A stretch of DNA of 64,000 bases from Candidatus Oxydemutator sp. (GCA_965203445.1 OZ241883.1:2304001-2368000); one strand, 5' to 3'. Positions 20,554-62,065 are shown, counted from the stretch's first letter. The notes: a model not told the origin generated them from the sequence alone. Numbers and translations are program-made.

Positions 20554-20566
20554 GGGGGGGGGGGGG
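20554..20566 (-). repeat. Homopolymer C13 (G13 on plus), candidate phase-variation tract
   Basis: Minus strand reads ATG ACT A + C13 + AATCCCGTTAC. C12 or C15 would put ATG 20573 in frame with paralog 1. Confidence 0.8.
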
Positions 20567-20712
20567 TAGTCATTGGTTCAGCGAAGGGTGTAAGCGAACA
20601 AGCATTTTGTCATTTTGGGACAGGTTTTTGTCATCGCTATTTAACAATAATCCGAAAAAACGAAGTTCGCGCCGGCTGCTGCGGGCGCTGGCAGAAGCCT
20701 GCAAGAACTTCA
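20567..20712. repeat. Intergenic/5' cassette duplicated at 24518-24663
   Basis: Near-identical ~145 bp (tagtcattggttcagcgaagggtgtaag...gcctgcaagaacttca) upstream of paralogs 1 and 2. Confidence 0.9.
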
Positions 20713-23700: not shown

Positions 23701-24480
23701 GTAACTGGCGGTCAGTTCCCTGGACGCGCCGCCGCCGGAATGCCCCGCCAGACCGCCTACGTTGTTCGTGCCGCTGACCGCCACCGACGCATACACCGCG
23801 ATTGCATCATGGTTGAGGAGTCCGACCAGACCGCCCACGTCCTCTGCGCCCGTAACCAAACCGCCCGCCGCGTAGATCGTCGCAACCACCGTGTTGGTGC
23901 TGACCCAACCCGTCAGCGCACCGACCCGGTTGCGACCGGTAACGTCCACGTCGAGCAAACCAAGATTCTGGATCCTGTTTAGTCGGGTGCCAACAGACCC
24001 TCGGGATATGCGCCCAAACAGGCCGACGTAATCCGAGGACGGACGGTTGATGTAGAGGCCCGTGATAACGTGGCCGCGACCGTCAAAATCGGCGTCGTAG
24101 CCAGTGTTCTCACCGCCTATCGGCTGCCAGCCTGCGCCGGCGTTCCAGTAGAGGTCGTCGCTGCGGGTGCCGAAGCTGCCGGTGTTGAAATCCAGGTTGT
24201 TCAGCAACTCATAGCCGTTGCAGGAAGCCGCGGTGCACGTCGTCGCAAAGGCCGCGGCGTAGTTCGCGGCGTTGTCCTGGGAATCCGCGACGCCGTCGCC
24301 GTTCAAATCCCAGCGTATGGCGTTCATCTGTTGCAGCGTGGTTACGTCAATCAGCCGGGGGGCGTTCTGCGTCTGCGCCGCGAGCGGTTGCGAGGTCAGC
24401 ACCAGCAGCGACGCGACCAGGAGTAGTCCAGACACCAGCAATCCTGAACACGCGCAACGCCGACGCATGTTCAAACCCAT
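20710..24480 (-). CDS. Secreted GLUG/Calx-beta repeat surface protein, paralog 2, with C-terminal dockerin-like domain; probable true start ATG 24524 via a poly-C tract (out of frame as assembled)
   Basis: Signal peptide ...LLVLTSQPLAA|Q, two GGLVG modules, two Calx-beta-like domains and the same tail domain. Confidence 0.85.
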   Translation of the reverse strand: MGLNMRRRCACSGLLVSGLLLVASLLVLTSQPLAAQTQNAPRLIDVTTLQQMNAIRWDLNGDGVADSQDNAANYAAAFATTCTAASCNGYELLNNLDFNTGSFGTRSDDLYWNAGAGWQPIGGENTGYDADFDGRGHVITGLYINRPSSDYVGLFGRISRGSVGTRLNRIQNLGLLDVDVTGRNRVGALTGWVSTNTVVATIYAAGGLVTGAEDVGGLVGLLNHDAIAVYASVAVSGTNNVGGLAGHSGGGASRELTASYAAGGVTGASNVGGLVGRRTDELTTVTASYWDTLASGQSASALGVGTDTASLQTPTTYSGIYAAWNVDVSGDGNADDPWRFGTSSEYPFLRVSEGENYDTDGDTLIEVATTSQLAAIRYDLGGAGIAGVSSANRAAYLAAFPFFDERRTCSGACTGYELSNDLDLSSVEPAPGPGWTPIGGGWTGTEIVGIVPESLRYNAVFEGHGHVIRNMRIQRTAGSSRYDFVGLFGALGVAGRIRSVGMENVSINAPESSAVAALAGFNYGKIAASYVVSGAVSGSSVVGGLVGAVERGIVVASYSDVAVHGDGQRVGGLAGFAAGEAIVRASYTIGKPTGGGNQRGGLMGWRDGRGVELQSSYFDSERSGESSCCGEGAPVTDTAPRSSAELRSPTAAEGIYAGWDRLNVDDTSSTVMGVLTLNDDAPWDFGNFLHYPVLVFGGDAGSRAARRASQQEAQPAVVLTPTLGGSETVSEGEAATYVVRLPGVLPAGMSASWDWSVGGTEIGAADFADTSRGSVVIAPGRSSESFSLTAAVDGVAELGEVFEVTMSNARLIGAPDDVTLEVPGTVARTTIAANELEQVTVAVAPAVVAEGTTATFTVSLSSGADRAVTVEYELAAVSEDLTAGDLGQATVIDRSGTIYVSVDALPVTGSITLDRGGTARVGVSVVDDEVEKESSERFRLRLTNCPNCGSVHLAEIGEPSSAEARIRSERGLVVAAGVYLEGAYSVATGDMGTFLNRALPRVQPYNVRPWNHAATTTVPRIEGAANANGMPSNVVDWMLLELRVVDTGSAPSAADPDSVPAGGVKAGLLLSDGSIAGVVEDATTTSAVLARQGVRFAVEIGSDKDVYLLLQHRNHLPILSARPLSAECGDLGADYCIDYREVGASADLYNRSCPMFRNNDRLFMITGDVNADGTIVSADAEFADEALRRAISLSLQATNNPDSFRILTFRGTAFYMPSANVSLDELLVSSDFDRVLTQLRRPSGLTRGMICRSSGQ

Positions 24481-24498
24481 ACTTCGTTTGTACAGAAA

Positions 24499-24517
24499 GG
24501 GGGGGGGGGGGGGGGGG
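24499..24517 (-). repeat. Homopolymer C19 (G19 on plus), candidate phase-variation tract
   Basis: Minus strand reads ATG ACT A + C19 + TTT CTG TAC AAA CGA AGT ATG. C17 or C20 restores the frame. Confidence 0.8.
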
Positions 24518-24660
24518 TAGTCATTGGTTCAGCGAAGGGTGTAAGCAGAGAAGCATTTTGTCATTCTGGGGCAGGTTTTTGTCATCGCTATTTAATAATA
24601 ATCCGAAAAAACGAAGTTCGCGCCGGCTGCTGCGGGCGCTGGCGGAAGCCTGCAAGAACT

Positions 24661-27600
24661 TCACTGCTCACTTGACCGGCAAATCCTCCCACGAGTGAGA
24701 CTGCCGGATGGACGCCTTAATTGCCTCACCACACGCTCGAAATCAGATGAGACTAGAAATTCGTCAAGACTGACGTTCGCGCTTGGCATATAAAACTCCG
24801 TGCCCCTAAATCTGAGAATCCTGAACGAAGCCGGATTATTTGTGGCCTGAAGTTGCAAAACGGCAGCAAGCCTAAGAGCCTCGTTTGCGAAATCAGCATC
24901 CGCCGATACTATCGTGCCATCAGCATTCACGTCGCCGGTTATCATGAACAAACGGTCATTGTTACGGAACATCGGGCAGCTCCCATTATACAAATCCGTA
25001 GAGGCTCCCACCTCTCGGTAGTCTATGCAATAGTTCGCACTTGAATCACCGCAATCCGTGGACAATGGCCGCGCCGACAATATCGGCAGGTGGTTGCGAT
25101 GCTGCAACAGCAGATACACGTCCTTGTTCGGCTCTATCTCGGCGTCAAAGCGCACCCCTTGCCGAGCCAACACATCCGTCGTCGTCGTCGCATTCTCGTT
25201 CACGCCTACTATGCTGCCGTCGGACAGAATCAAGCCTGCCTTTACGCCGCCTACGGGCACGCTGTCCGGATCCGCAGCACTCGGCGCGGAACCCGTGTTC
25301 ACTACCCGCAACTCCAACAACATCCAGTCCACCACATTCGACGGCATGCCGTTTGCGTTGGCAACACCCTCTATACGAGGCACCGTCGTCGTCGCCGCGT
25401 GGTTCCAGGGCCTCACGCTATACGGTTGTACACGTGGCAGCGCTCGATTCAAAAAAGTGCCCATGTCGCCATCCGCGACACGATACGCCCCCTCCAAATA
25501 CACGCCCGCGGCCACCACGAAACCTCTCTCGCTGCGGATGCGGGCTTCGGCGGACTTCGGCTCTCCTATTTCCGCCAGATGCTCGCTGCCGCAGTTCGGG
25601 CAGTTCGTCAAAGTCAAACGAAATCGCTCGCTACTTTCCTTCTCTACCTCGTCGGCCACAACGGACACACCCACTTCCGCAGTACCGTCCTCGCGCAACG
25701 TTATGCTCCCGGTGATCGGCAGCGCATTCACGCTCACGTAGTTGGTGCCGCCGCGATCTATCACGGTAACTTGCGACAGATCTCCGGACGTCAGGCCTTC
25801 GGACGCGGTCGTAAGCTCATATTCCACCGTAACGTCCCAACCAGCGCCGCCGCTCAACGTCACCGTGAACGTCGCGGTAGTCCCTTCCGCCACCACCACA
25901 GGCGCCACCGCCACCGTCACCTGATCAAATTCGTTGGCCGCTATCGTCGTCCGCGCAACGGTGCTCGGCGCGTCCAGCGTCACGTCGTCGGGCGCCCCGG
26001 TAAGCCGCGCGTTGCTCATGGTCACCTCGAAGGCCTCGTCCAGCTCGGCGACACCGTCAACGGCCGCCGTCAGGAAAAACGACGCGCTGCTCCCACCCGG
26101 TGCGATAACCACGCTGCCTCTGCTGGTGCCGGCAAAATCGGCGGCGCCGATTTCAGTGCCGCCCACCGACCAATCCCAACTCGCACCGACCCCCGCCGGC
26201 AAGACCCCCGGCAGACGCACCACGTAGCTCGCCGCCTCGCCTTCCGACACCGTCTCGCTGCCGCCCAGCGTCGGCGTCAGCACCACCGCGGGCTGCGCCT
26301 GCTGTTGCGACGTGCGCTGTGCCGCCCGACTGTCGGCGTCGTCGCCGAACACCAGCACCGGGTATTGATAAAAAGTACCAAAATCCCACGGCGCGTCGTC
26401 GTTCAAGTCGCCGTCGTCCTCCTGATCCACGCCGTCCACGTTCAACTTGTCCCAACCCTCGTAGATGGTGCCCGCCGTGGTCGGAGCGCGCAACTGGTTC
26501 GACGTCTTCGGGCTGTTGTCCGGACTCGGCACATTCGCTCCTCCGCAGCAACCACTCTGGCCGCTGCGCTCGTTATCAAAATAGCTTGCCTGGATGTCGG
26601 TGGCAACGGCACCGCTTGTATCACGCCGTCCTAACAAGCCGCCCCTTACAGTATCTCCCATATGGGATCCGCCTTTCACCACCCCGATAGAATAACTGGC
26701 GCTCACCACCGAACCCACACCAGCCTCCCCGATCAGGCCGCCCGACGTGTGAAACCTCGAATCCACTTCCACATTGGCATAACTTGCTATCACCTTGCCA
26801 AAATTAGACCCCGCCAAACCACCCGCTCCCCAAGCACCATACACTCTCCCACCTATCACGTAGCAGGCCGCCACTTTGCCGTCGTTACGCCCCACCAGCG
26901 CACCCGTATGAACACTATGTTGCCCTATATTCAGATTCACGTCCCTCAAGCCCACGTTGCGGATGACACCGTCGCCGTCCAAGACGCGGAACAAGCCCGC
27001 AAAGTGCCATACATTATTCGGGGAGAGCAGTTCCATATTGCTGATAACGTGGCCGTTGCCCTCAAACACCGCTTTGTAACGGTGCTCCTTGGACAGCCCG
27101 CTGCCACTGACAAAGGACGTGCCCACCCCGCCCCCTATCGGTACCCAGTCCGTCCCCGCCAAGTCTATATCGTTCGACAGCTCGTAGCCGGTGCACGTGC
27201 TGGGACAGGTGCGCCTCTCGTCGAAAAAGGGAAACGCCGCCAGGTATGCATCCCTGTTCGCATCGCTGACACTCGCCAACCCGGCACCGCCCAGGTCGTG
27301 GCGTATCGCCGACAACTGTGTCGTCGTCGTAACGTCTATCAAACCGTCGTTGTCGCGGTCGTGGTCCATCCCGTCGCTGAGCCCGATGATGGTTGCCGCG
27401 GAACTCGCGGCAACCGCATCGCCGCTTACGCCGACAGAGAATTGCTCGGCGTACTCCGGGGCCTGATCGTCGAAAACATATACCGAAAACGTCGTCCCGG
27501 TGGTGCCCGCCCGGATGATCACCGTGCCGCTCGGAAAACGGGCAAGCTGCATTCCGACGTCATCGGCAAAATCCGCGGCCACGACGCCGTCGGTCCCCGT

Positions 27601-29097: not shown

Positions 29098-29540
29098 TGA
29101 ACCTATCTCAAAATTGCCTAATCAATATCATCATGGCGGCCAGCTGCACAAAACCAAAAAAGTTATGCGCGTAATACTCCCACCGTGTTAACACTCGTCG
29201 TTGCCATTGTAGCCATGCAAAAGTTCTCTCCACTATCCAGCGTCTTTCACAGCGGCGCAGCCTGCGACCATCCTGTGTCTTGCGTTTCTAACGGCGGTGC
29301 ACTGTTTTGTAATTCGGCTAACATTGCGGCAGCATCTTCCATTGCGCACCCGTGTTGAGGATCCACAGGACGCCTTCGAGAACCTTTCTTGTCGGCACCG
29401 GCTTGCGACCGGCCCGACCCGGCGGGATGTTTTCTTCTGGGAAGTGCTTGCGTATGCGTTCCCATTGCTCGTCGCTCAATCGTACCATGCAATGGATCAT
29501 ACACGATAATCAGCAGATATTCGATTTTGAGATAGGTTCA
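29098..29540 (-). mobile_element. Internally deleted IS5-family element (443 bp) with intact ends
   Basis: Perfect 17-bp inverted repeats TGAACCTATCTCAAAAT (29098-29114) and ATTTTGAGATAGGTTCA (29524-29540), enclosing N- and C-terminal transposase remnants. No clear TSD. Confidence 0.9.
29108..29488 (-). pseudogene. IS5-family transposase pseudogene
   Basis: MVRLSDEQWERI...[27 protein letters not shown] joined to KTQDGRRLRR.ERRWIVERTFAWLQWQRR...FVQLAAMMILIRQF*. Two in-frame stops, and the central DDE region is missing. Confidence 0.88.
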
Positions 29541-44600: not shown

Positions 44601-47600
44601 CGCCGGCATGCACTTCCACGTCGGCGTAACATGCCACCAACCTACCGTAATTGACCCCTATCAAACCACCCACCCCCCATACGCCGGATATGCGACCGCC
44701 ACTGACGTAGCTCGCCACCACTTCGCCCCTGTTCAGGCCCACCAGCGCGCCTATAAAAGTGCTGTGGTCAGCATCCACGGACACCCGCGCGTTGCGCAAG
44801 CCCACGTTGCGGATTGTGCCGGTGGCGCTCACGGCGCCGAACAAACCCGTGTGAGAGAACCGTCCATCCCTGGCCACCCGCATATTGCTGATGACGTGGC
44901 CGTTGCCTTCAAAAACAGCGGTGTAATAATCATCATCCAGAAGGGCGTTAACCCCCCCGCCTATCGGCGTCCAGCCCGGGCCCGGGGCCGGTTCCACGCT
45001 GGACAAATCCAGGTCGGCCGATAACTCGTAGCCGGTGCACGTGGTGGGGCAGGTCTGCTCCATGCCGAAAGCGGGAAACGCCGCCAGATAATCATCCCTG
45101 TTCGCCTTGCCCACCACGCCCGCCAACCCGACACCGCCCAGGTCGTGGCGGATCGCCGCCAACTGCGACGTTGTCGCCACCTCTATCAAGGTGTCATTGT
45201 CGAAGTCGTAGTCTATCGCGCCGCTTGCCTCGATCGTGGTCCTGACGGAAGCCGGCACTCCTAAACTCACGTGCGCAGGCGCCCCCGTGAGCCTCGCGCC
45301 CGTCAACGTTACCACCAGTACCTCGGACAACTCGGGCTCGTCGTCGTCGCGCACCCTGACCGAAAACGACGCGCTGACGGCGCCCGAGGCGATGGCCACG
45401 TTGCCCGTGGTCGCGCCGACAAAGTCGGCGATGCCGACTTCGCCGCCGCTCACCGACCAATCCCAACGCGCGCTCACCCCCGGCGGCAAGGCCATCGGCA
45501 AACGCACCACGTAACTCGCGGTGCCGCCTTCCGACACCGTCGCGCTGCCGGTGAACGTCACCGCAAGACTTATCTCCGGCTGCGCCTCCTGCTGCAACGT
45601 GCGACGCGCCGCCTCCGTGTCGGTAGCCCCGCCGAACACCAGCACCGGGTAATCGAACACGCTGCCGAAGTCCCACGGACTGTCGTCGTTCAAGTCGTCG
45701 TCGCCGCCCTGATCCACGCCGTCCACGTCCAACTTGTCCCAACCGGCGTAGATCGTGCCCGCGGCCGTCGTCGGGGCGCGCAACTGGTTTGACGTCTTCG
45801 GGGCGACGTTGTCCGTATCACCCGGCGCCGTTCCGCAGCAACTGGTCTGGAGGCTGCGCCCCGTATCAAAATAACTGGACTCCACCACGGCGCCGGCCAG
45901 CCTCTGCCCTATCAAGCCGCCGGCCGTGGCCCCCGTCAGTTTCCCGACGGAGTAACTGGCGCTCATCACCGACGCGCCACCGGCTTCGCCCACCAGACCG
46001 CCCACGTTGGCTCCCTCTGCTGTATGCACTTCCACGTTGGCGTAACTCGCCACCAACCTGCCGAAGTTGCCCCCTATCAAGCCACCCACCGCCCATACGC
46101 CGGATATGCGACCGCCACTGACGTAACTCGCCACCACTTGGCCCTCGTTGCGGCCCACCAGCGCTCCTATATAAGTGCTATGGGCAACTACGGACACCCA
46201 CGCGTTACGCAAGCCCACGTTGCGGATGGTGCCGACGGCGCTGACGGCGCCGAACAAACCCGTGTGAGACAACCGTCCATCAGCCCTGACCACCCGCATA
46301 TTGCTGATGACGTGGCCGTTGCCTTCAAAAACAGCGGTGTAATAATCATCATCCAGAAGGGCGTCCCCCCCCCCGCCTATCGGCGTCCAGCCCGGGCCCG
46401 GGGCCGGTTCCACGCTGGACAAATCCAGGTCGGCCGATAACTCGTAGCCGGTGCACGTGCTGGGGCAGGTCTGCTCCACGCCGAAAACGGGAAACGCCGC
46501 CAGATAATCATCCCTGTTCGCATCGCTCACGCCCGCCAACCCGGCACCGCCCAGGTCGTAGCGGATCGCCGCCAACTGCGACGTCGTCTCCACGTCTATC
46601 AAGGTGTCATTGTCAAAGTCGTAGTCTATCTCGCCGCCCGCCTCGATCGTGGTCCTGACGGAAACCGGCACGCCTAAACTCACGTGCGCAGGCGCCCCCG
46701 TGAGCCTTGCGCCCGTCAACGCCACCACCAGAACCTCGGACAACTCGGGCTCGTCGTCGTCGCGCACCCTGACCGAAAACGACGCGCTGACGGCGCCCGA
46801 GGCGATGGCCACGTTGCCCGTGGTCGCGCCGACAAAGTCGGCGGCGCCGACTTCGCCGCCGCCCACCGCCCAATCCCAGCTCGCACTCACCCCCGGCGGC
46901 AAGACCATCGGCAAGCGCACCACGTAACTCGCGGTGCCGCCTTCCGACACGGTCTCGCTCCCGGCGAGCGTCGGTACCAGTAGCGCCAGCGCCCTCTGCT
47001 GCGATAGGCGACGCGCCGCCCTCGTCTCGGTAGCGCCGCCGAACACCAGCACCGGGTAATCGAACACGCTGCCGAAATCCCACGGACTGTCGTCGTTGTA
47101 GTCGCGGTCGTCTCCCTGATCCACGCCGTCCACGTTCAACTTGTCCCAGCCAGCGTAGATGGTGCCCGCGGCCGTGGTCGGGGTGCGCAACTCGCTCGAC
47201 GTCTTCGAGGTGCGGTCCGGATCCGGCGCATTGAATCCGCAGCAACGGTCCTGGCCGCTGCGCCCCGCGTCAAAATAACTGGACTCCACCACGGCGCCGA
47301 CTGGCATATTCCCTATCAAGCCGCCACTCGGGAGAGAACCCCCCGTCGTTTTCCCGACCGAGTAGCTGGCGCTCACCACCGACGCGAAACCGGCCACCCC
47401 TACCAGACCACCCGCGTTACTTGCATCTGCATGCACTTCCACGTCGGCGTAACTCGCCACCAATCTGCCGTTATGATTTCCTATCAAACCGCCCACGTAC
47501 AATTCGCCGGATATGCGACCGCCACTGACGTAACTCGCCGCCACTTCGCCCTCGTTGGTTCCCACCAGCGCACCTATATGATTGCCATCACTGCCCAGGT

Positions 47601-59600: not shown

Positions 59601-61899
59601 CTATCGTCACCGTGAGCGCGCTCTTGTCCGGATCTATAGTCACCCTCTCGGGAGCAGACGCCTGCGAAACAAAGCCCAAATTCACGGTGAACGTCTCCGC
59701 ACCCTCGGCGACGTCGTCATTGATCAGAACCACGCTGCCACACGAGCTGTCGACGCTTCTGCCAAAGGGGCCTATCATCACCGTGGCGGAAGACACGTAG
59801 TCGTCGCCCGCCACGGCGCTGCCGTCCGCCACATTCAACGCCAAACTGAAGTCACTTCTCTCTATCAGCCCGCCAGTGCTCGGATCCGTGATTGCGACGC
59901 ACACGGAAGCCGACGAATCAACGCCCTCGGTCACCGTCAGCGTGGTCTGCTCGAAACCGATTGTGATTCCGTCGTCTTCCGCTATTGTGACCTCCGCCAC
60001 CGCGGGATTGATGGTGACTCTTTCCAGCGTCTGGCCCGGGGGCGCGGTCAAGTCCAGAAAAAAGCTCTCAGCGTCTTCACGTATCGCATCGTCCGTGATC
60101 TCAACAGCGAAGCATTGACGCCGAGTCCTATCCGAGAACGGCCCGACGTCCTGCTGATTGATCGAAGTAAAGTCGTTGGTGCCGGCGGTGCCCGGCCTGG
60201 TCGAGAGCTTCATCCCGATCCGCCGATCCAGAGGCTGCGTACTCAACGGCGTGGTTGCATCCACGCATACAGAATCACCACGAGCGTCCTCATCTATACT
60301 ATAGGAGGTTCTTGCAAAACCGACTACAACCGGGTCGTCGTCCTCTATCGTCACCGTCGCCATCTGCGTGGATTCCGAATAACCGGCGCTCACCAGCCGC
60401 AACGGGATGGTCTCCGCTTCCTCCGGTATCGCGTCGTCAATGATGCTTATCGTTACATCGGCCCGCGGGGCGCCCGACGCATTCAACGAAAACACGACCG
60501 ACGACGTCGACACGTCGTAATGAAAGAACGTGGCGCCTCCCGGCAGCGTCAGCATCGTGCCGTCGTCCAACGCCGCCACCGTGCCGGTGACCGAAAAATC
60601 GCTTATCCTCAGCGCTTCGTCCGAAAGCCGCACCGTCACCGTGACGACGGCGCCGGAACTTTCCACCGCCGAATACATCGAACTGGTGAAAACCACCGGC
60701 GGCCCCGTCAACTCGGCCGCCACCGCGCCGCGCTGCCGCGCGACCGAAAAACTGCTCGCCTGCAACACCGGATACTGCATCGAAGTGCCGAAGTCCCACG
60801 GATCGTCGTTGCCGTCCACGCCGGTCCTGGTGCTGCCGTCCACGTCTATATTCCAGTTCGCGTAGATGCCGCTGTAGGTCGTCGGCGTCTGCAACGACGC
60901 GGTGTCGGTGCCAATCGCGCCGCTGCCGGCGCTTTCGGCCAAGCCGCTGGCCTCGGTATCCCAGTAGGAGTCCTTATAGTTGTCGCCGCCGGACATAGTT
61001 GTACTCCACCCCACCAGACCGCCCGCGTTGGTCGTGCCGGTGACTTGGCCCGCCGCGTAACTGGCTATTATTCTTTCTCTACCCATAGCCGCGTTCCCTC
61101 CCAACAAACCGCCCGCCCCATTGCCACCGCGAACGTCTACTATCGCGTAGCTGGCCTTGATCCTCACGCCAACTGAAAACGCCAGGTACCCCACCAAACC
61201 ACCTGTGTTAGACGTGCCGGATACGTCGCCTCCCGTTACGTGGCTGGTTACTACCGTTCCGGTGCTGACGTATCCCACTAACGCGCCAACCCACTGCCGC
61301 CCGGTTACGTCCACGTCCTCCATACCGACGTTTCTGATGCCCGGAGTGTCTTCCCCGGAGTGATCGGCACTGACCTTGAAGCCGAAGTGGCCGAATAAAC
61401 CCACGCGATCAGAGGTTGGGCGATTGATAAACAGGTTTTCAATGACGTGCCCCCTGCCGTCAAAGTCGGCAATATAAGGATCGTCCGCACTGCCTATCGG
61501 CTGCCAGCCTGCGCCGTCGTTCCGATAGAGGTCGTCGCTGCGGGTGCTGGTGCTGCCGGTGTTGAAATCCAGGTTGTTCAACAACTCGTAGCCGTTGCAC
61601 GAAGACGCGGTGCACGTAGTGGCAAAGGCCGCGGCGTAGTTCGCGGCGTTGTCCTGGGAATCCGCGGCGCCGTCGCCGTTCAAATCCCAGCGTATCGCGT
61701 TTAATTGTTGCAGCGTGGTTACGTCAATCAGTCGGGGGTCGTTCTGCGTCTGCGCCGCGAGCGGTTGCGGGGTCAGCACCAGCAGCGACGCGACAAAGAG
61801 CGACGTCCAGGCAAGCGGTTCTGAACGCGCGGAACACCGGCGCACGCCCAGGCCCATACTCCGCTTGTAGAGGAAGGGACAGGTAATAGAAAATGCCAT
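29611..61899 (-). CDS. Giant (~10,760 aa) secreted GLUG/Calx-beta repeat adhesin-like protein with C-terminal dockerin-like domain
   Basis: Uninterrupted 32.3-kb ORF. Start placed at ATG 61899 (MAFSITCPFLYKRSMGLGV...; alternative ATG 61857). Signal peptide ...LLVLTPQPLAA|Q, a head module, 3 Calx-beta-like domains, 20 units of ~480 aa, and the shared tail. Confidence 0.9.
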   Translation of the reverse strand: MAFSITCPFLYKRSMGLGVRRCSARSEPLAWTSLFVASLLVLTPQPLAAQTQNDPRLIDVTTLQQLNAIRWDLNGDGAADSQDNAANYAAAFATTCTASSCNGYELLNNLDFNTGSTSTRSDDLYRNDGAGWQPIGSADDPYIADFDGRGHVIENLFINRPTSDRVGLFGHFGFKVSADHSGEDTPGIRNVGMEDVDVTGRQWVGALVGYVSTGTVVTSHVTGGDVSGTSNTGGLVGYLAFSVGVRIKASYAIVDVRGGNGAGGLLGGNAAMGRERIIASYAAGQVTGTTNAGGLVGWSTTMSGGDNYKDSYWDTEASGLAESAGSGAIGTDTASLQTPTTYSGIYANWNIDVDGSTRTGVDGNDDPWDFGTSMQYPVLQASSFSVARQRGAVAAELTGPPVVFTSSMYSAVESSGAVVTVTVRLSDEALRISDFSVTGTVAALDDGTMLTLPGGATFFHYDVSTSSVVFSLNASGAPRADVTISIIDDAIPEEAETIPLRLVSAGYSESTQMATVTIEDDDPVVVGFARTSYSIDEDARGDSVCVDATTPLSTQPLDRRIGMKLSTRPGTAGTNDFTSINQQDVGPFSDRTRRQCFAVEITDDAIREDAESFFLDLTAPPGQTLERVTINPAVAEVTIAEDDGITIGFEQTTLTVTEGVDSSASVCVAITDPSTGGLIERSDFSLALNVADGSAVAGDDYVSSATVMIGPFGRSVDSSCGSVVLINDDVAEGAETFTVNLGFVSQASAPERVTIDPDKSALTVTIVDDDGGVSYDDDGDDLIDVRTVGQLDAMRWDLDGDGMPDDQARVTSYTAAFPSARPNMGCATTCRGYELWNDVDLSSVGNWTPIGGGYSPASPAWTGSWNQYPTSIRYEGVFEGNGHVIRNMKITRDSGNRYDYVSLFGTLGNTGVIRSVGMENVNVNAPDSEGVAALVGVSYGKIAASYAVSGTVSGSWDVGGLVGEMKGGIVIASYSDVAVHGVGQRAGGLIGTGEGSSVVNASYTVGKPTGGGSHRGGLIGHRGSAVKIQSSYFDSERSGESSCCGGTTAPSPDETPQTPAKLRAPIAADGIYAGWDRLNVDDTTGTVMGVLTLNDDSPWDFGSSLQYPVLHGQGERYPAGNTTATRVQRQRQPPVLATLSQRGRRVVVEGFAATYAVELGSRAAEPVTMSWSVELTGGVAGHADAADFDGATSGEVVLVNTDSVVFRVEIAGDAAMEPRETFRVRLSNLQGPDNLYLSTVSSAVVSTIPSNGGMDYDANDDGLIEVRTTTQLEAIRHDLRGEGRFGVDDEDLADYDLAFPSFDESATCLNTCRGYELSNDIDLSSVPNWAEKQIGGGYAQALSVWDGWNMQPESLRYNAVFEGRGHVIRNMNLTRSGARSDYVGLFGILGADGVIRSVGMENVNVSAPNSVGVGALVGYNFGKIAASYVAGGSVSGSWAVGGLVGEMSGGIVIAGYSNVRVHGAGERAGGLIGSDTGNSVVSASYTIGKPTGGGPDRGGLIGYRTSMEIQSSYFDLERSEESSCCGHNPPSPDETPQTTVQLRSPTAADGIYAGWDRLNVDDTSSTVMGVLTLNDDSPWDFGSPFQYPVLHGQSERFPAGNTTAIRAQHQRQPLVLATLSQRGDEVITEGSAVTYAVELRNGVADVVTVSWSVELTGDGDGHADAADFDGATSGEVVLVNTGSAVFRVEIAGDEAMEPRETFRVRLSDLPSLGGLRLSTVSSAVVSTIASNGGMDYDANDDGLIEVRTTTQLAAIRYDLRGEGRLGVGDGDLADYDRAFPSFDESATCLNTCKGYELLNEIDLPSDENWEPIGGGARTGFSNDVLPEEHRYNAVFEGNGYVIRNMKMVYGNEHTASRYDFVGLFRALGGDGVIRNVGLANVNVSVSRNSIQTGALAAANYGGKVAACYVAGGSVKGAWGVGGLVNSNVGGTIIASYADVTVWFPGSEAGGLVGGNASGGKIIASYSLGNVGLTGANWPISEPRHIGGLVGNNTAASDLIENSYFDTDSSGLSSGGTNVSATTVKTTRELRSPVTAEGIYAAWGGLNVDDTTGTVMGMETLNDDNPWDFRTNLDYPVLRGISARYPNGNTTGVLAQRTAADVLVTLSQDEGRKLEGEAAEYAVTLGAYGAGAVTMSWSVELTGTGLGHADALDFDGATSGEVVLVGTDSAVFRITIRDDDASETTETFRVRLSNPRGLGGLRLSAASSAVVSVIERSDEIDYDTDGDTLIEVATPLQLSAIRHDLGGAGLTGVGSANVLAYLAAFPSFDQRRTCPTTCTGYELSNDLDLSGISNWKPIGGGLTQAPWGTPPPDRRYQAVFEGNGHVISNVTIRSANNAADRFDNVGFFGAVGVTGRIRNVGLNNVHTDMAGSSLGAGALVGYNAGKVAACYVVGDVRQVRGGWSLGALVGRLDGGVVIASYADVRVHQWPPGRNVGGLIGAVENGGIVSASYAISRLSRLHGLQGSPSGGLVGDYISGTIQTSYFDEGRSGQSACCGSNKPTPDNAPRTSSQLRAPTMAAGTIYEGWDRLNVDDTSSTVMGVLTLNDDSPWDFGTGFDYPVLRGVSARYPRGNTTATRAQRRGQPPVLATLSQRGRKVVVEGFAATYAVELDGHSDDVVTMSWSVELTGDGDGHADAADFDGATSGEVVLAGTDSAVFGVAIAGDAMDEPRETFRVRLSNLQGPDNLRLSTVSPAVVSTIASSEGMDYDVDGDGLIEVRTTTQLAAIHHDLRGEGKIGVDDEDLADYDLAFPSFDESATCPNTCKGYELLNDIDLSSVQNWTPIGGGYSPASPAWTGSWNQYPTSIRYEGVFEGNGHVIRNMKITRDSGNRYDYVSLFGTLGNTGVIRSVGMENVNVNAPDSEGVAALVGVSYGKIAASYAVSGTVSGSWDVGGLVGEMKGGIVIACYSDVAVHGVGQRAGGLIGTGTGDSIVSASYTVGKPTGGGSHRGGLIGHRESTVKIQSSYFDSERSGESSCCGGTTAPSPDETPRTSVQLRAPTMADGIYAGWDKLDVDGVDQGGDDDLNDDGPWDFGTSFDYPVLRGVSARYPDGNTTAIRVQRRGQPPVLATLSQRTIGAIAEGSAAEYVVELDSHGASPVTLSWSVELTGDGDGHADAADFPATAGTITLVDTDSVVFRVAIAGDEAEEPRETFRVRLSNVQGADNLRVSTVSSAVVSTIASSGGMDYDANDDGLIEVRTTTQLAAIHYDLRGEGRLGVDDEDLADYDLAFPSFDESATCPNTCKGYELLNDVDLSSVRNWTPIGGGITQGSPGWSSWQQRPLHISYGAVFEGNGHVIRNMRIRRDGERDDYMGLFSILSSTGVIRNVGMEGVNVSAPPSVWVGALAGYNFGKIAASYAVNGSVRGFWATGGLVGGVGGGIVIASYSAVSAHGVANAQRVGGLIGNDDGGGSIVSASYTIGVPSGGDPHRGGLVGYRQLFQEQPSLVIPLEIQSSYFDGERSGESSCCGHNPPSTDRDTRKTSAELRTPIAADDFYTGWDKLDVDGVDQNGDDDLNDDSPWDFGTGFDYPVLRGVSARYLDGNTTATRVQRRGQPPVLATLSQRTIGATPEGSAVEYAVELDGRGADPVTLSWSVELTGVGAGHADAADFTEATRGTVTLVNTDSAVFRITVGDDDVSEVPETFRVRLSNVQGPDNLRLSDASSSVVSSIAFGGTNYDADGDNLIEVATTSQLSAIRYDLGGVGLAGVSSANEADYLAAFDLFDEAKTCPSTCTGYELSNDLDLSDADWTPIGGATRRSRVGPDNSNTPPLDGRYQGGFEGNGHVIRNMRVRSPSQNWHYVGLFGALGEAGWVRGVGLRDVVVDVRGGYSGSIGAGALVGHSYGRVAASYVSGGSVSGGWEVGGLTGANGGTLIASYADVSVAATDRSLGGLVGSLSGSGVVSASYSVSRVVRSTNSRTVGGLVGGRSGSSVLSASYFDSGRSGEERCCGERWPSPDDAPKTSNDLRTPTTAAGTIYEGWDRLNVDDTSSTVMGVLTLNDDSPWDFGTVFDYPVLVFGGSAGTRMARRTSQQQAQPAVTLTPTLGGSVTVSRGGIASYVVSLPGALPPGASAHWDWSVGGDEVGDDDFVGTTAGSVVIGSGALSASFSLRVRDDDVTESSKVMVVTLSNAEITGAPARVSLSVPVSSVMTTIEASGMMDYDVDDDTLIEVATTSQLAAIRHDLGGVGLAGVSGDANRAAYLAAFPSFGRRQTCPSTCTGYELSADLDLSSVEPHPGPGWTPLGGGVEVQDFPGDYYTAVFEGNGHVISNLRVNRDEEWYQVGLFGAVSASGTIRNVGLRNARVEVAASGPGQSPFVGALVGDNRGKVAASYVSGGRISSGYAVGGLIGINSGRVVASYADVAVYAFSTVGGLVGQAAGPASVVSASYSVGRVTGIFPPIGGLIGSGFRTSVVESSYFDKERGVQSDCCGSKASHQLRTPTTAAGTIYAGWDKLNVDDVDQGRDGDLNDDSPWDFGSAFDYPVLVFGGATETRAARRISQQETLALLVPTLAGSETVSEGGTASYVVRLPVVLPPGASARWDWAVGGGEVGIADFVGAITGTVVVGSGASSASFSLRVRDDAAPESSEVLVVTLTGARLTGAPAHVGLGVPAASVRTIIEASSGTDYDDDADGLIDVETTSQLAAIRYDLGGAGLAGVSDANRDDYLAAFPFFDERLTCPSTCTGYELSADLDLSGVEPAPGPGWTPLGGGIPRDDSPVDYYTAVFEGNGHVISNLRMARSGQWYHMGLFGAVGADGRIRNVGLRNARVDLGSDGNHIGALVGTNEGEVAASYVSGGRISGELYVGGLIGNHNGRLVASYADVEVHADASNAGGLVGVAGFASVVSASYSVGKTTGGSLPSGGLIGNMPVGAVVESSYFDAGRSGQDRCCGFNAPDPDRTSKTSSELRTPTTAAGTIYAGWDKLNVDGVDQGDDRDYNDDSPWDFGSVFDYPVLVFGGATETRAARRLSQQRALALLVPTLAGSETVSEGGTASYVVRLPMVLPPGVSASWDWAVGGGEVGAADFVGATTGNVAIASGAVSASFSVRVRDDDEPELSEVLVVALTGARLTGAPAHVSLGVPVSVRTTIEAGGEIDYDFDNDTLIDVETTSQLAAIRYDLGGAGLAGVSDANRDDYLAAFPVFGVEQTCPSTCTGYELSADLDLSSVEPAPGPGWTPIGGGGDALLDDDYYTAVFEGNGHVISNMRVVRADGRLSHTGLFGAVSAVGTIRNVGLRNAWVSVVAHSTYIGALVGRNEGQVVASYVSGGRISGVWAVGGLIGGNFGRLVASYANVEVHTAEGANVGGLVGEAGGASVMSASYSVGKLTGATAGGLIGQRLAGAVVESSYFDTGRSLQTSCCGTAPGDTDNVAPKTSNQLRAPTTAAGTIYAGWDKLDVDGVDQGGDDDLNDDSPWDFGSVFDYPVLVFGGATDTEAARRTLQQEAQPEISLAVTFTGSATVSEGGTASYVVRLPMALPPGVSARWDWSVSGGEVGIADFVGATTGNVAIASGAVSASFSVRVRDDDEPELSEVLVVTLTGARLTGAPAHVSLGVPASVRTTIEASGAIDYDFDNDTLIEVATTSQLAAIRHDLGGVGLAGVVGKANRDDYLAAFPAFGMEQTCPTTCTGYELSADLDLSSVEPAPGPGWTPIGGGVNALLDDDYYTAVFEGNGHVISNMRVARDGRFSHTGLFGAVSATGTIRNVGLRNARVSVDADHSTFIGALVGLNRGEVVASYVSGGRISGVWGVGGLIGVNYGRLVACYADVEVHAGGGTVGGLVGEVRAPSVVNASYSVGKPTGNDAVGGLMGQFVGGVVESSYFDVERSLQASCCGTDPQNLDNVAPRMSSELHVPTTTAGTIYAGWDKLDVDGVDQGDDGDLNDDSPWDFGSVFDYPVLVFGGATDTEAARRTSQQETQPEVSLAVTFAGSAAVSEGGTASYVVSLPGALPAGVSASWSWAVGGGEVGADDFVGTTAGSVVIASGAVSASFSLRVRDDLVTELAEVMVVTLTGAKITGAPARVSLGVPVSVRTTIEASGKIDYDVDDDNLIEVTTMSQLSAIRYDLGGVGLAGVGSANEADYLAAFPLYDVVQTCPSTCTGYELSADLDLPSGQNWDPIGDDANRYQAVFEGNGHVISNMEIRAPDNGNYHYRGLFGSLGAGGTIRNVGLSDVHIELRGDSFQTGALAGASRGKIAASYVAGGLINGVWRVGGLVGTLYTNATMIASYTDVEVRARNEENDGSAAGGLIGTAESGSIVSASYAIGRTTAVGDEDGGLIGERDSQARIQKSYFDTGRSGQSDCCGQNTRQSDSGTGRTSAQLRAPTMADGIYAGWDKLNVDGVDQNGDDDLNDDSPWDFGTGFDYPVLRGVSARYPDGNTTAIRAQRRGQPPVLATLSQRTSGTTPEGSAVEYAVELDGRGAIPVTLSWSVELTGVGAGHADAADFTEVTRGTVTLVNTDSAVFRITVGDDDESEVPETFRVRLSNPRGLERLRLSDASSSVVSSIAFGGTNYDADGDNLIDVATTSQLSAMRYDLGGVGLAGVSSANEADYLAAFDLFDEAKTCPSTCTGYELSADLDLSDADWTPIGGATRQSRVGPDNSNTPPLDGRYQGGFEGNGHVIRNMRIRSPSQNWHYVGLFGALGEAGWVRGVGLRDVVVDVQRGYSGSIGAGALVGYSYGRVAASYVSGGSVSGGWAVGGLTGVNDGTLIASYADVSVAATDRSLGGLVGSLSGSGVVSASYSVSRVVRSTNSRTVGGLVGSRSGSSVLSVSYFDSGRSGEERCCGERWPSPDDAPKTSAELRTPTTAAGTIYEGWDRLNVDRVDQSGDGDYNDDSPWDFGTSFDYPVLRGVSARYPDGNTTAIRAQRRGQPLVLVTLSQRTSGAIAEGSAVEYAVELDGRGAIPVTMSWSVELSGVGPGHAEAADFSGVTRGQVVLINTDSAVLEVQIIEDGTPERAERFRVRLSNLLAPDNLRLSAPGSAVVSVIASHGMNYDLDGNNLIDVRTTTQLSAIRYDLRGAGLAGVDGGDLATAAYQEAFPFFDEDETCPDGCRGYELLNDVDLSSVASGTNWEPIGDDTNRYQAVFEGNGHVISNMEIRAPDNDDYHYRGLFGFLGAGGTIRNVGLSDVHMELRGASSQTGALAGASRGRIAASYVVGGLVNGVWRVGGLVGTLHTSATMIASYTDVEVRARNENDQGNSAGGLIGVAESGSIVSASYAIGRTTAVGDQDGGLIGERDSQARIQKSYFDSERSGESSCCGGTTAPSPDETPRTSVQLRAPTAAAGTIYAGWDKLNVDGVDQSGDDDLNDDSPWDFGTGFDYPVLRGVSALYPGGNTTATRVQRQSQPPVLVALSQRGDEVTAEGSAAEYAVELDGHSDDVVTMSWSVELTGVGDGHADATDFPTTMGTITLVDTDSAVFRVAIAGDEALEPRETFRVRLSNVQGADNLHLSTVSSAVVSTIASSGGMDYDANDDGLIEVRTTTQLSAIRYDLRGGGRLGVGDGDLPDYDLAFPSFDESATCPNTCKGYELLNDMDLSSVQNWTPIGGGYSPASPAWTGLWNAFPESIRYEGVFEGNGRVVRNMRISRASRYDYVGLFGTLGSAGVIRSVGMVGVSVDVPPGSGSGGAAALAGVSYGKIAASYAVSGTVSGSWAVGGLIGEIIGGTVIAGYSDVAVHGGGVRAGGLIGSGTGDSIVSASYTVGIPTGGGSHRGGLIGHRESTVKIQSSYFDSERSGESSCCGGTTAPSPDETPRTSVQLRTPTMADGIYAGWDKLDVDGVDQGGDDDLNDDGPWDFGTSFDYPVLRGVSARYPDGNTTAARVQRRGQPPVLATLSQRTIGAIAEGSAAEYVVELDSHGASPVTLSWSVELTGDGGGHADAADFPATAGTITLVDTDSVVFRVAIAGDAALEPRETFRVRLSNVQGADNLRVSTVSSAVVSTIASSGGMDYDANDDGLIEVRTTTQLAAIHYDLRGEGRLGVDDEDLADYDLAFPSFDESATCPNTCKGYELLNDVDLSSVRNWTPIGGGITQGSPGWSSWQQRPLHISYSAVFEGNGHVIRNMRIRRDGERDDYMGLFSILSSTGAIRNVGMEGVNVNASPSVWVGALAGYNFGKIAASYAVNGSVRGFWATGGLVGGVGGGIVIASYSAVSAHGVANAQRVGGLIGNDDGGGSIVSASYTIGVPSGGDPHRGGLLGYRQLFQEQPSLVIPLEIQSSYYDGERSGESSCCGHNPPSTDRDTRKTSAELRTPIAADDFYTGWDKLDVDGVDQNGDDDLNDDSPWDFGTSFDYPVLRGVSARYLDGNTTAIRAQRRGQPPVFATLSQRTTGTIAEDSAMEYVVALDGHGATPVTLSWSVELTGDGDGHADALDFDGATSGEVVLVNTDSAVFRVAIAGDEALEPRETFRVRLSNLQGPDSLRLSTVSSAVVSTIASSGGMDYDANDDGLIEVRTTTQLAAIRYDLRGEGRLGVGGEDLADYDLAFPSFDESATCPGTCKGYELLNDVDLSGMAWEPIGGGARGLSGKVLPEEHRYNAVFEGNGYVIGNMEVLARNDIWHFVGLFRALGAGGVIRNVGLANVNVEVHISSTLTGALAGANYGGKVAASYVAGGTVRGGLGVGGLVAGNGGTIIASYTDVTVDAGNSRVGGLVGENYSGGKIIASYSSGRVRRTLPRLSVTPYLGGLVGENRAASTAIESSYFDGDRSGLSSGGTNVPSSSLRTSRELRSPTAATGIYAAWAGLNVDDTTGTVMGVLTLDDDNPWDFGTGFDYPVLRGVSVRYLGGNTTATRVQRRGQPPVFVTLSQRGDEVTAEGSTATYAVELGGGAADVVTMSWSVELTGVGDGHADAADFPATTGTITLVDTDSAVFGVAIAGDAMEEPRETFRVRLSNLQGADNLRLSTVSSAVVSTIASSGGTDYDANNDGLIEVRTTAQLAAIRYDLRGGGRLGVGDGDLPDYDVAFPSFDESATCPNTCKGYELLNDVDLSSVRNWTPIGGGITQAGEGAPANTRYEAVFEGNGHVISSMTITRSGATGYYHVGLFGALGAFGMIRSVGLVDVNVNISATDSVNTGGLVGTGYGTIAASYVVGKSAREAAPVRGYSVVGGLVGRMIGGVVIASYTDVPVIAQTAAGGLVGAMNDASIVSASYAIGRVSVQRSNGRIGGLVGERAGNTDEIQASYFDSGRSGQSSCCGHNPPSLDETPRTSEDLRTPIAADGIYTGWDELDVDGLHDDAPWDFGTSFDYPVLRGASARYPDGNSTSIRVQQRRQTPVLATLSQRTVEAIAEGSAAEYAVELDDHGATPVTLSWSVELTGVGAEHADAADFAGATSGEVVLAGTDSAVFSVTIEDDDVSEPRETFRVRLSNPRGLDRLRLSVASSAVVGTIERSDGIDYDDDGDNLIEVATTSQLSAIRYDLDGDGMPDEQAYVTTYTAAFPRAELNMGCAATCKGYELSNNLDLSSVENWTPIGGGYSPASPAWTGSWNQYPTSIRYEGVFEGNGHVIRNMKITRDSGNRYDYVSLFGTLGNTGVIRSVGMENVNVNAPDSEGVAALVGVSYGKIAASYAVSGTVSGSWDVGGLVGEMKGGIVIACYSDVAVHGVGQRAGGLIGTGEGSSVVNASYTVGKPTGGGSHRGGLIGHRGSAVKIQSSYFDSERSGESSCCGGTTAPSPDETPQTPAKLRAPIAADGIYAGWDRLNVDDTTGTVMSVETLNDDSPWDFGSSLQYPVLHGQGERYPAGNTTAIRVQRQRQPPVLATLSQRGRRVVVEGFAATYAVELGSRAAEPVTMSWTVELTGDGDGHADAFDFDGATSGEVVLAGTDSVVFGVAIAGDAAPEPRETFRVRLSNLQGPDGLRLSTVSSAVVSTIASSEGMDYDVDGDGLIEVRTTTQLEAIRHDLRGEGRLGVDDGDLADYDLAFPSFDESATCPNTCKGYELLNDIDLSSVPNWAEKQIGGGYAQALSVWNGWNMQPESLRYNAVFEGHGHVIRNMNLTRSGARSDYVGLFGILGADGVIRSVGMKNVNVSAPDSVGVGALVGYNFGKIAASYVAGGSVSGSWAVGGLVGEMNGGIVIAGYSNVRVHGAGERAGGLIGSDTGNSVVSASYTIGKPTGGGPHRGGLIGYRTSMEIQSSYFDLERSEESSCCGGTTAPSPDNSPKTSYDLHIPTMADGIYAGWDKLNVDDTTGTVMGIETLNDDNPWDFGTAFDYPVLKGVSDFFPSGNTTEIRAQRESQPAVKAAFAGSAMVSEGARARYTVSLPGALPSGVTASWNWNVDTSGGTSELDDIDGANNGNVSITAGNSSQSFQVAIKDDDGAELAETFSVELTNAMLSGAAGTLRLSTEALEAMTTIAANEFDQVTVAAAPAVVAEGATATFTVSLSGGANWAVTVEYELTTASEGLTSADLGGVLEIDRGGSAGVSVNALPVTGSITLGEDGTARVQVSVVADEVEKENSERFRLRLTNCPNCGSDHPAEIGEPKFAEVGIRSERGLVVAAGVYLEGAYRVADGDMGTFLNRALPRVQPYSVRPWNHAATTTVPRIEGVANANGMPSNVVDWMLLELRVVNTGFAPSAADPDSVPVGGVKAGLILSDGSIVGVNENATTTTDVLARQGVRFDAEIEPNKDVYLLLQHRNHLPILSARPLSTDCGDSSANYCIDYREVGASTDLYNGSCPMFRNNDRLFMITGDVNADGTIVSADADFANEALRLAAVLQLQATNNPASFRILRFRGTEFYMPSANVSLDEFLVSSDFERVVRQLRRPSGSLTRGRICRSSGR
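31320..33560. repeat. Near-identical copy of ~57140-59380 (modules A+B; offset 25,818 bp)
   Basis: Shadow ORFs 33019 and 58837 begin identically, and the same loop sequences recur (SPASPAWTGSWNQYPTSIRY; AEKQIGGGYAQALSVW). Boundaries approximate. Confidence 0.85.
36960..38800. repeat. Near-identical copy of ~51220-53060 (end of A-type module plus module E; offset 14,262 bp)
   Basis: Shadow ORFs 38776/53038 and 37807/52069 share the same offset, and the loop GITQGSPGWSSWQQRPLHISY occurs in both. Boundaries approximate. Confidence 0.85.
41490..42880. repeat. Near-identical copy of ~49970-51370 (module F; offset ~8,487 bp)
   Basis: Shadow ORFs 42392 and 50879; loop ATR[RQ]SRVGPDNSNTPPLDGRY occurs in both. 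Boundaries approximate. Confidence 0.85.
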
Positions 61900-62031
61900 C
61901 CTGCTACAGTAGTAAATCAAAGTGGTTCGGGCTGATCCAGCCCTTGTCCCGTCATAATAACACGGCGAACACACAGTATACTTCGGGAACACCCATAGGG
62001 GCGTTCCCTTACCGATGTATAAGGCCGCAAC

Positions 62032-62065
62032 GGCCCTCACCCCGACCCTCTCCCCGAGGGAGAAC
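62032..62065. repeat. BoxC-like extragenic element (CCCTCACCCCGACCCTCTCCC...GGGAGA)
   Basis: Resembles the widespread CCCTCACCC-N3-CCCTCTCCC...GGGAGAGG palindromic repeat (recalled, not searched). Confidence 0.55.

Follow-up and report, generated by a model that had tools for sequence, protein, structure and literature searches.

In the genome of Candidatus Oxydemutator sp., a run of 19 cytosines (C19) lies at the 5' end of a gene for a large repeat protein, and we consider it probable that this tract is a slipped-strand translational phase-variation switch set inside an extended signal peptide, with a sister switch in a neighboring paralogue. The tract lies in a window of 64,000 nucleotides (nt) (GCA_965203445.1 OZ241883.1:2304001-2368000), the minus strand of which is the coding strand for all genes under study and the coordinates of which are used here. 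The host genome (G000) is one contig of 2,378,814 bp with 63.6% GC, and DNA of the bacterium occurs in sponge metagenome runs. Four tandem genes on the minus strand of the window encode related large proteins, namely paralogue 1 (P1), paralogue 2 (P2, which bears C19), paralogue 3 (P3), and a giant open reading frame (ORF) (Table 1). The case for a switch is built on the geometry of the P2 locus, a tract that is not random, a coding-type constraint on the codons that follow it, and the recurrence of the same layout at many genes of G000 and its relatives, all of which can be read from the sequences themselves.

In the mechanism that we propose, C19 would be a hypermutable homopolymer in the 5' coding region of P2, between a candidate start codon, ATG 24524, and the extended signal peptide. 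Replication slippage would alter the length of the tract by single bases. At C17, C20, or C23, ATG 24524 would be joined to a secreted repeat protein of 1256 amino acids (aa) as MTT-(Pro)n-FLYKRSMGL, and other lengths would lead to an early stop; at C19 it follows the 17th codon, and at C18 or C21 it lies 49 codons past the tract. P1, with a tract of C13, would be the sister switch. We infer that ATG 24524 is used, that the tract slips in vivo, and that expression is turned on and off.

The coding strand of P2 reads ATG (24524) ACT A, C19, TTT CTG TAC AAA CGA AGT, ATG (24480) GGT TTG AAC ATG (24468). As stated in the original prediction, which was made from the sequence of the window alone, ATG 24524 and ATG 24480 are out of frame at C19 because they lie 44 nt apart on the minus strand. 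Since 7 nt lead from ATG 24524 to the tract, the two frames join wherever 7 plus the tract length is divisible by 3, that is, at C17, C20, and C23; the joined product MTT-P(n)-FLYKRSMGL had been anticipated for the first two lengths and is obtained for the third as well. The prediction also took ATG 24480 for the called start, which is correct for the longest ORF, but the protein on record begins at ATG 24468. It did not include the P1 leader (ATG 20573 ACT A followed by C13). The 136 nt upstream of the P1 and P2 ATGs are duplicated with 94.9% identity, and P1 has no ATG past its tract, so that its possible starts are TTG 20527, GTG 20521, or a codon ahead of the tract. The giant ORF carries no tract at the leader site, where it reads ATT ACC TGT CCC as predicted, and continues as TTC CTC TAC AAG CGG AGT ATG (61857) GGC CTG, in frame with ATG 61899; its similarity to P2 begins at CCC TTC (61878), exactly where the P2 run ends. 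Several features expected of an intragenic contingency locus are found at P2: the simple repeat is far longer than chance would give, it lies between a start codon (ATG 24524 being the candidate) and the body of the ORF, where a change of 1 nt shifts the frame, and the stretch from the repeat to the next ATG appears to be translated (P = 0.005 in three paralogous copies).

The N-terminus of P2 resembles a signal peptide, with RRR followed by LLVSGLLLVASLLVLT and then PLAA/QTQ, as read by eye and with no predictor. Repeat modules follow (LIDVTTLQQMNAIRWDLNGDG and VGGL motifs). P2 itself has no match in Pfam or NCBIfam, or in PDB by sequence, and its homologues carry Calx-beta, GLUG, and fn3 families; the P2 product thus appears to belong to the secreted or surface class.

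A chance origin of C19 is excluded. A/T runs in G000 reach at most 9 nt, and among C/G runs four measure 10 nt and 13 measure 13-28 nt, with lengths of 11-12 nt absent; by our arithmetic, about 0.002 runs of at least 19 nt would be expected in a genome of this size and base composition. It is also hardly conceivable that the run is an artefact of assembly or sequencing. Long homopolymers are hard to call, and the fragmented contigs of relatives break at such runs (as in G016), but a short contig built from 31-mers crosses the run with both flanks and reads 19, the run sits with unique flanks within a closed contig, and the layout is repeated at paralogues and in several genomes. The short contig (210 nt, depth 20.6) comes from sequencing run X1 and spans 24325-24534 with 0 differences and 0 gaps; it is not independent, because X1 may be the source sample. 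The comparison of tract lengths, which was made on contigs only, gives 19 in X1, at least 8 G at the same place in the relative X3, which then diverges, and C13 versus C19 in the sister tracts. Length heterogeneity was rejected as the cause of the breaks in the X1 contigs at 24534 and 24517, since 13 G and 29 nt of flank are also present in the P1 copy, which interrupts the 31-mer graph at exactly these places.

The codons that follow the tract indicate how it may be read. Between the giant and P2, the FLYKRS stretch differs at 0, 0, and 4 sites in the first, second, and third codon positions, and the adjoining MGL at 1, 0, and 1. All six differences are synonymous and four of them lie upstream of ATG 24480, just as the original prediction had claimed. 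For four differences among 18 sites, the probability that all are at third positions is P = 0.0049. Over the next 35 codons, which form the rest of the signal peptide, the corresponding counts are 9, 8, and 7, with 13 non-synonymous and 2 synonymous codons. The FLYKRS peptide thus appears to have been kept constant while its codons and its neighbors drift, and the comparison supports the view that the six codons from the tract to ATG 24480 behave like coding DNA. In P1 the counterpart of ATG 24480 is CTG, yet YKRS-GL is conserved and the frame remains open as far as the P1 tract.

The leader could be aligned codon by codon among the three copies in G000, as had been suggested, but no leader was found outside this genome. 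A DNA search of 41 relatives matched, outside G000, only the run itself, and a protein search of 19 family genomes (G000 and 18 others) matched, outside G000, only internal repeat modules in G004. A pattern scan of metagenomes for the leader gave 51 loci, which are chance matches, because none has a C run in the gap. In the distant homologue P0015 the called protein runs through a TPPPPPH stretch, and four orthologues are called from a Met past it, which is the same annotation ambiguity as in P2.

The arrangement of P2 recurs elsewhere in G000. An open ATG at most 21 nt upstream, in at least one orientation, is found at 10 of the 13 long runs, compared with 17.3% of random positions per strand and approximately 32% when both strands are counted. 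In two giant genes with PKD repeats, ATG abuts a poly-G run that is followed by CVRSLLLLLGLSVVATVSA; the ATG is in frame in one gene and out of frame in the other. Further runs lie ahead of a P3-like ORF of 2400 codons, a 2OG-Fe(II) oxygenase, a HAD-like protein, and a GT4/GT1-type glycosyltransferase, where the last three assignments are based on matches below or near the Pfam cut-offs (the HAD-like and glycosyltransferase matches lie under them). Surface repeat proteins, glycosyltransferases, oxygenases, and HAD-like proteins are classes typical of contingency loci. Three of the nine scorable loci in G000 are in frame and six are out.

Long runs are widespread among the relatives as well. 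Of 41 related genomes, 19 have runs of at least C15, with 9 of 18 in family f1, 9 of 11 in f2, 0 of 10 in f3, and 0 of 1 in f4, and the numbers of such runs per genome include 74 in G004, 45 in G022, 14 in G006, 8 in G010, 6 in G001, and 5 in G003. The longest are C45 in G001 and C70 in G010. For G004, which belongs to the family of G000 but to another genus, 38 of the 74 tracts were analyzed, and for G022 6 of the 45. An ORF of at least 150 codons directly follows the tract in all 38 cases in G004, and a hydrophobic core lies within 45 residues in 36 of them. An ATG lies at most 30 nt upstream in 28 of the 38, with an AGGAG-type motif 6-10 nt before the ATG in 22 of these, and most leaders span 7-8 codons (for example, MNRQxFNT and MKQKTYNT). 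The layout of start codon, short leader, poly-C, and signal peptide is the rule in this genome. No Met lies between the tract and the hydrophobic core at 30 of 36 loci, and 11 loci are in frame and 25 out, which is near one third. Translation must traverse the run in G004. Among approximately 27 scorable loci in the other relatives, an ORF of at least 150 codons extends from the run in 18, and several G022 runs have no such ORF.

The bases that precede the runs also show a preference. TA stands before the tract in 22 of the 38 G004 cases, with ACTA in 18 of these 22, as in P1 and P2, and before 6 of the 13 runs in G000 (cta in five and tta in one); in G022 the base before the run is mostly G. 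Paralogy accounts for part of the TA/ACTA preference.

Loss of mismatch repair was considered as a cause of the runs and rejected. Both mutS and mutL score over the cut-off in G000 and find a match in every f1 and f2 genome searched, and 30 of the 41 genomes are over the cut-off. Half or more of the f1 and f2 genomes have runs. By contrast, mutS and mutL are lacking in nine of the ten genomes of f3, a family of small genomes (0.9-1.2 Mb; G020-G039), the tenth having weak matches under the cut-off in each search, and no C15 runs occur in this family. Since mutS and mutL are present, the runs exist despite mismatch repair, and long runs go together with intact mismatch repair here.

EF-P is needed for the translation of poly-proline, and its gene (efp) is present in G000, so poly-proline can be translated. 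Several points nevertheless weigh against the proposed switch. No Shine-Dalgarno-like motif lies upstream of ATG 24524, an objection that is weakened because only about 16% of crude first-ATG starts in G000 have such a motif upstream (9% at control positions). Two in-frame ATGs, 24480 and 24468, lie past the tract, each with a workable signal peptide, and the second is the start of the protein on record, so P2 could be expressed independently of the tract; in G001, and in the PKD genes of G000, a GTG past the tract is a possible alternative start. P1 and P2 are both out of frame in the assembled consensus. Selection at the protein level ahead of ATG 24480, as originally inferred, agrees with the third-position differences, but the test comprises three paralogous copies and six sites because the leader was found nowhere outside G000, and the synonymous-only pattern could stem in part from selection on the giant copy alone. 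The P1 and P2 leaders differ by non-synonymous changes (FL to SR and M to L) and by 2 nt in spacing. Finally, among 10 database homologues of near length and 51 longer ones, none starts with MTTPPP or carries YKRS.

It is possible, although we regard it as rather unlikely, that the tract belongs to an untranslated leader or promoter of P2, that the start is always ATG 24480 or 24468, and that tract length tunes transcription, or tunes translation via a short upstream frame. The in-frame ATGs past the tract, the record protein, and the lack of a Shine-Dalgarno motif before ATG 24524 all fit this explanation, as do a Met or GTG past the tract at other loci (793242, L069, and the PKD genes) and the way in which P0015 and its orthologues are called. 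Promoter C-stretches of up to C19-C22 are known from Bordetella (PMC1891110). In a variant of this explanation, the frame from ATG 24524 would stop at C19 at TGA 24473-24471 and translation could reinitiate at ATG 24468, giving control at three levels instead of on and off. The arrangement TGA-ac-ATG, present at C19, is specific to P2, and because the TGA sits 2 nt before ATG 24468, reinitiation could give some P2 product at this length. However, a scan of 24380-24760 on both strands found 0 sigma-70-like promoters, with other sigma factors and weak promoters lying outside the scan, and by this result the P2 tract is not placed as in a promoter-spacer switch of the Bordetella fim type. TACAAA past the tract is without the conserved final T of a -10 box. 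Neither a terminator consensus nor an Rfam family was found in the P2 leader region. An untranslated leader does not predict differences at third positions only, P1 is without an ATG past its tract, and 30 of 36 loci in G004 have no Met before the hydrophobic core, most having a strong ribosome-binding site before the upstream ATG.

We consider it improbable that P1 and P2 are decaying or silent copies whose tracts are leftovers of mutation without a part in regulation, with the giant as the sole expressed gene. Both tracts are indeed out of frame, P1 has lost the internal ATG and has two changed leader residues, the array also contains a degenerate insertion sequence (IS)-like element, upstream of P3, and the leader is absent from the relatives searched. 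Set against this, the ORFs of P1, P2, and P3 are unbroken over 1256-1464 codons, and approximately one third of loci in frame is what a momentary picture of a working repertoire of switches would show. Long uninterrupted runs, here 13-28 nt, are not expected to last without selection in the contingency-locus view. An even less probable explanation is slippage of RNA polymerase on the run, which would give mRNAs of mixed frame and a constant, reduced expression whatever the DNA length. Transcriptional slippage has been proposed for the poly(A) tracts of insect endosymbionts, and the runs of 13-28 nt here, and of 45 and 70 nt in relatives, are far beyond what switching at the DNA level needs; it is, however, best documented on A/T runs. 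Transcriptional slippage is compatible with a slipped-strand switch in the coding region and the two are not exclusive.

Table 1. Features of the paralogue array, in window coordinates
Feature	Position	Strand	Remarks
P1 ORF	16364-20527	-	1387 aa from TTG; CTG at the site of ATG 24480; open back to the tract (..PPPPQSRYKRSLGLGVHRC..)
P1 C13 tract	20554-20566	-	After ATG 20573-20571 ACT A; out of frame at C13; frames join at C12 or C15
P2 ORF	20710-24480	-	1256 aa, longest ORF
Second in-frame ATG (MRRRCACSG...)	24466-24468	-	Start of the protein on record, P0004, 1252 aa
TGA closing the 17-codon frame from ATG 24524 at C19 (MTTPPPPPPFCTNEVWV*)	24471-24473	-	2 nt ahead of ATG 24468
First in-frame ATG past the tract (MGLNMRRR...)	24478-24480	-	Start of the longest ORF
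Six codons TTT CTG TAC AAA CGA AGT (FLYKRS)	24481-24498	-	Tract to ATG 24480; sole start-type codon is the rare-type CTG
C19 homopolymer of P2 (G19 on plus strand)	24499-24517	-	In frame, ACC and CCC codons (Thr, poly-Pro)
Candidate P2 start ATG	24522-24524	-	7 nt ahead of the tract (ATG ACT A); same ATG ACT A in P1
Intergenic leader region P3-P2	24525-24660	-	Small ORFs; one ends in an ATGA overlap with ATG 24524
P3 ORF	24661-29055	-	
Giant ORF	29611-62070	-	
Giant leader ATG GCA TTT TCT ATT ACC TGT CCC	61876-61899	-	ACC TGT CCC at the P1/P2 tract position; no homopolymer

The giant had been suggested to be fixed ON, and this presumed status agrees with its in-frame ATG and the lack of a tract at its start. 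A run of ten bases (C10 on the plus strand, G10 on the coding strand), one of the four 10-nt C/G runs of the genome, lies at window 46365-46374 inside the giant ORF, approximately 5175 codons from ATG 61899. The giant may not be fixed ON after all, because a change of 1 nt in G10 would truncate it. Between a moaA-like gene and the giant leader (61980-62063), a repetitive extragenic palindromic (REP)-like intergenic repeat is present, with approximately 45 partial copies genome-wide.

Upstream of the P2 and P1 tracts, at 24590-24610 and 20640-20660, the sequence ATG ACA AAA ACC TG(C/T) CCC resembles the ATT ACC TGT CCC of the giant, and ATGACAAAA is present twice, 24 nt apart. At C19 this upstream ATG shares the P2 frame, but a TGA four codons ahead of the run blocks it. 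The upstream ATG may be the relic of an older start, and the run may have grown from ACC TGY CCC; we estimate the chance of the 9-mer match at approximately 0.02. P3 has a different N-terminus (MRIVCLLLMAFGADAAAQ) without a run, and a P3-like gene elsewhere in the genome (793242) has a G21 run 27 nt before its ATG. The degenerate IS-like element lies at 29099-29539, between the giant stop and P3. Its ends form inverted repeats of 16 nt (gaacctatctcaaaat and attttgagataggttc), its transposase-like frame (MVRLSDEQWERIRKHF...) is broken, and it may be of the IS5 type.

Two further observations concern G000 as a whole. At genome position 1381142-1381235 (locus L151 2642-2735), a Schlafen AlbA_2 / HATPase_c_4 gene carries G25 and C28 at its 3' end, with 41 nt between them, and both would be traversed by a single minus-strand frame. 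Several giant ORFs share the module LIDVxTxxQLxAIRYDL, which is repeated dozens of times, at approximately 570-680, 710-800, 1265-1285, 1680-1700, 1769-1785, 2232-2240, and 2320-2366 kb, so that a large share of this small genome encodes giant repeat proteins.

Slipped-strand phase variation is a known mechanism, and nothing new is needed to account for P2. A close counterpart is the Gardnerella sialidase gene nanH3, in which a run of 8-14 C lies approximately 100 nt into the ORF, just past the signal peptide, and varies in length within cultures (bioRxiv 10.1101/2020.09.16.300947). The gene nanH3 shares with P2 a C homopolymer in the 5' ORF of a secreted or cell-wall protein, a full-length or truncated product depending on frame, and an automatic annotation that starts the gene past the run and loses the N-terminus. 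The P2 run differs in being C19, 7 nt past the ATG and ahead of the signal peptide, and P2 is known from assembled sequence only. The Opa proteins of Neisseria have CTCTT repeats in the leader region. In Helicobacter pylori, oipA is switched by CT repeats in the signal-peptide region (PMC10564699). Both cases resemble the present one in having a repeat within the region coding for the leader or signal peptide and a surface family with many paralogues, each of which switches independently by slipped-strand mispairing. They differ in having di- and pentanucleotide repeats in human pathogens, whereas here a mononucleotide repeat, read as poly-proline (poly-glycine in two PKD genes), occurs in a bacterium of a sponge metagenome.

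In Bordetella fim2, fim3, and fimX, a C-stretch in the promoter alters transcription (PMC1891110). Bordetella resembles the present case in C runs of 13 to 22, a GC-rich proteobacterium, and surface structures; by contrast, the P2 run is preceded by an ATG, followed by a coding-type constraint, and flanked by no promoter consensus. Tracts in Campylobacter and Neisseria typically measure 8-13 nt. Those described here differ in length, which is 13-28 nt in G000 and reaches 45 and 70 nt in relatives, and in numbering up to 74 per genome (G004) with mutS and mutL intact. In each genome of Campylobacter and Neisseria, genes for surface proteins and glycosylation carry many poly-G/C tracts, some in frame and some out (PMC8355987, PMC5084427). 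Our literature search gave no description of such tracts in sponge symbionts, with supplements lying outside the search. What is unusual is the lineage-wide scale, the length of the runs (C45 and C70), and their position between start codon and signal peptide.

The tracts also bear on annotation. Gene callers start genes past the tract, as in P0004 at ATG 24468, or split them, and the N-termini and pseudogene counts of this lineage are therefore unreliable.

Tentatively, and with less confidence than for P2 itself, we suggest that a sponge-associated lineage (19 of 41 genomes searched, in two families) may possess a contingency system of very large size. In this system, uninterrupted C/G runs of 15-70 nt would separate the start codon from the signal peptide of as many as 74 genes for secreted proteins in a 2.5-Mb genome and would be translated into poly-proline or poly-glycine although mismatch repair is intact, with approximately one third in frame at a time. 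P2 would be one unit of it, perhaps with three outputs (fusion at C20, reinitiation at ATG 24468 at C19, and off at C18). If this is true, stochastic surface variation of the type found in mucosal pathogens would extend to a symbiont of a marine animal, and both the density and the length of the tracts would exceed those described. If the tracts switch, dozens of secreted and surface proteins would vary cell by cell in this bacterium and its relatives, which would bear on their persistence in a filter-feeding, phagocytic sponge host and under phage pressure.

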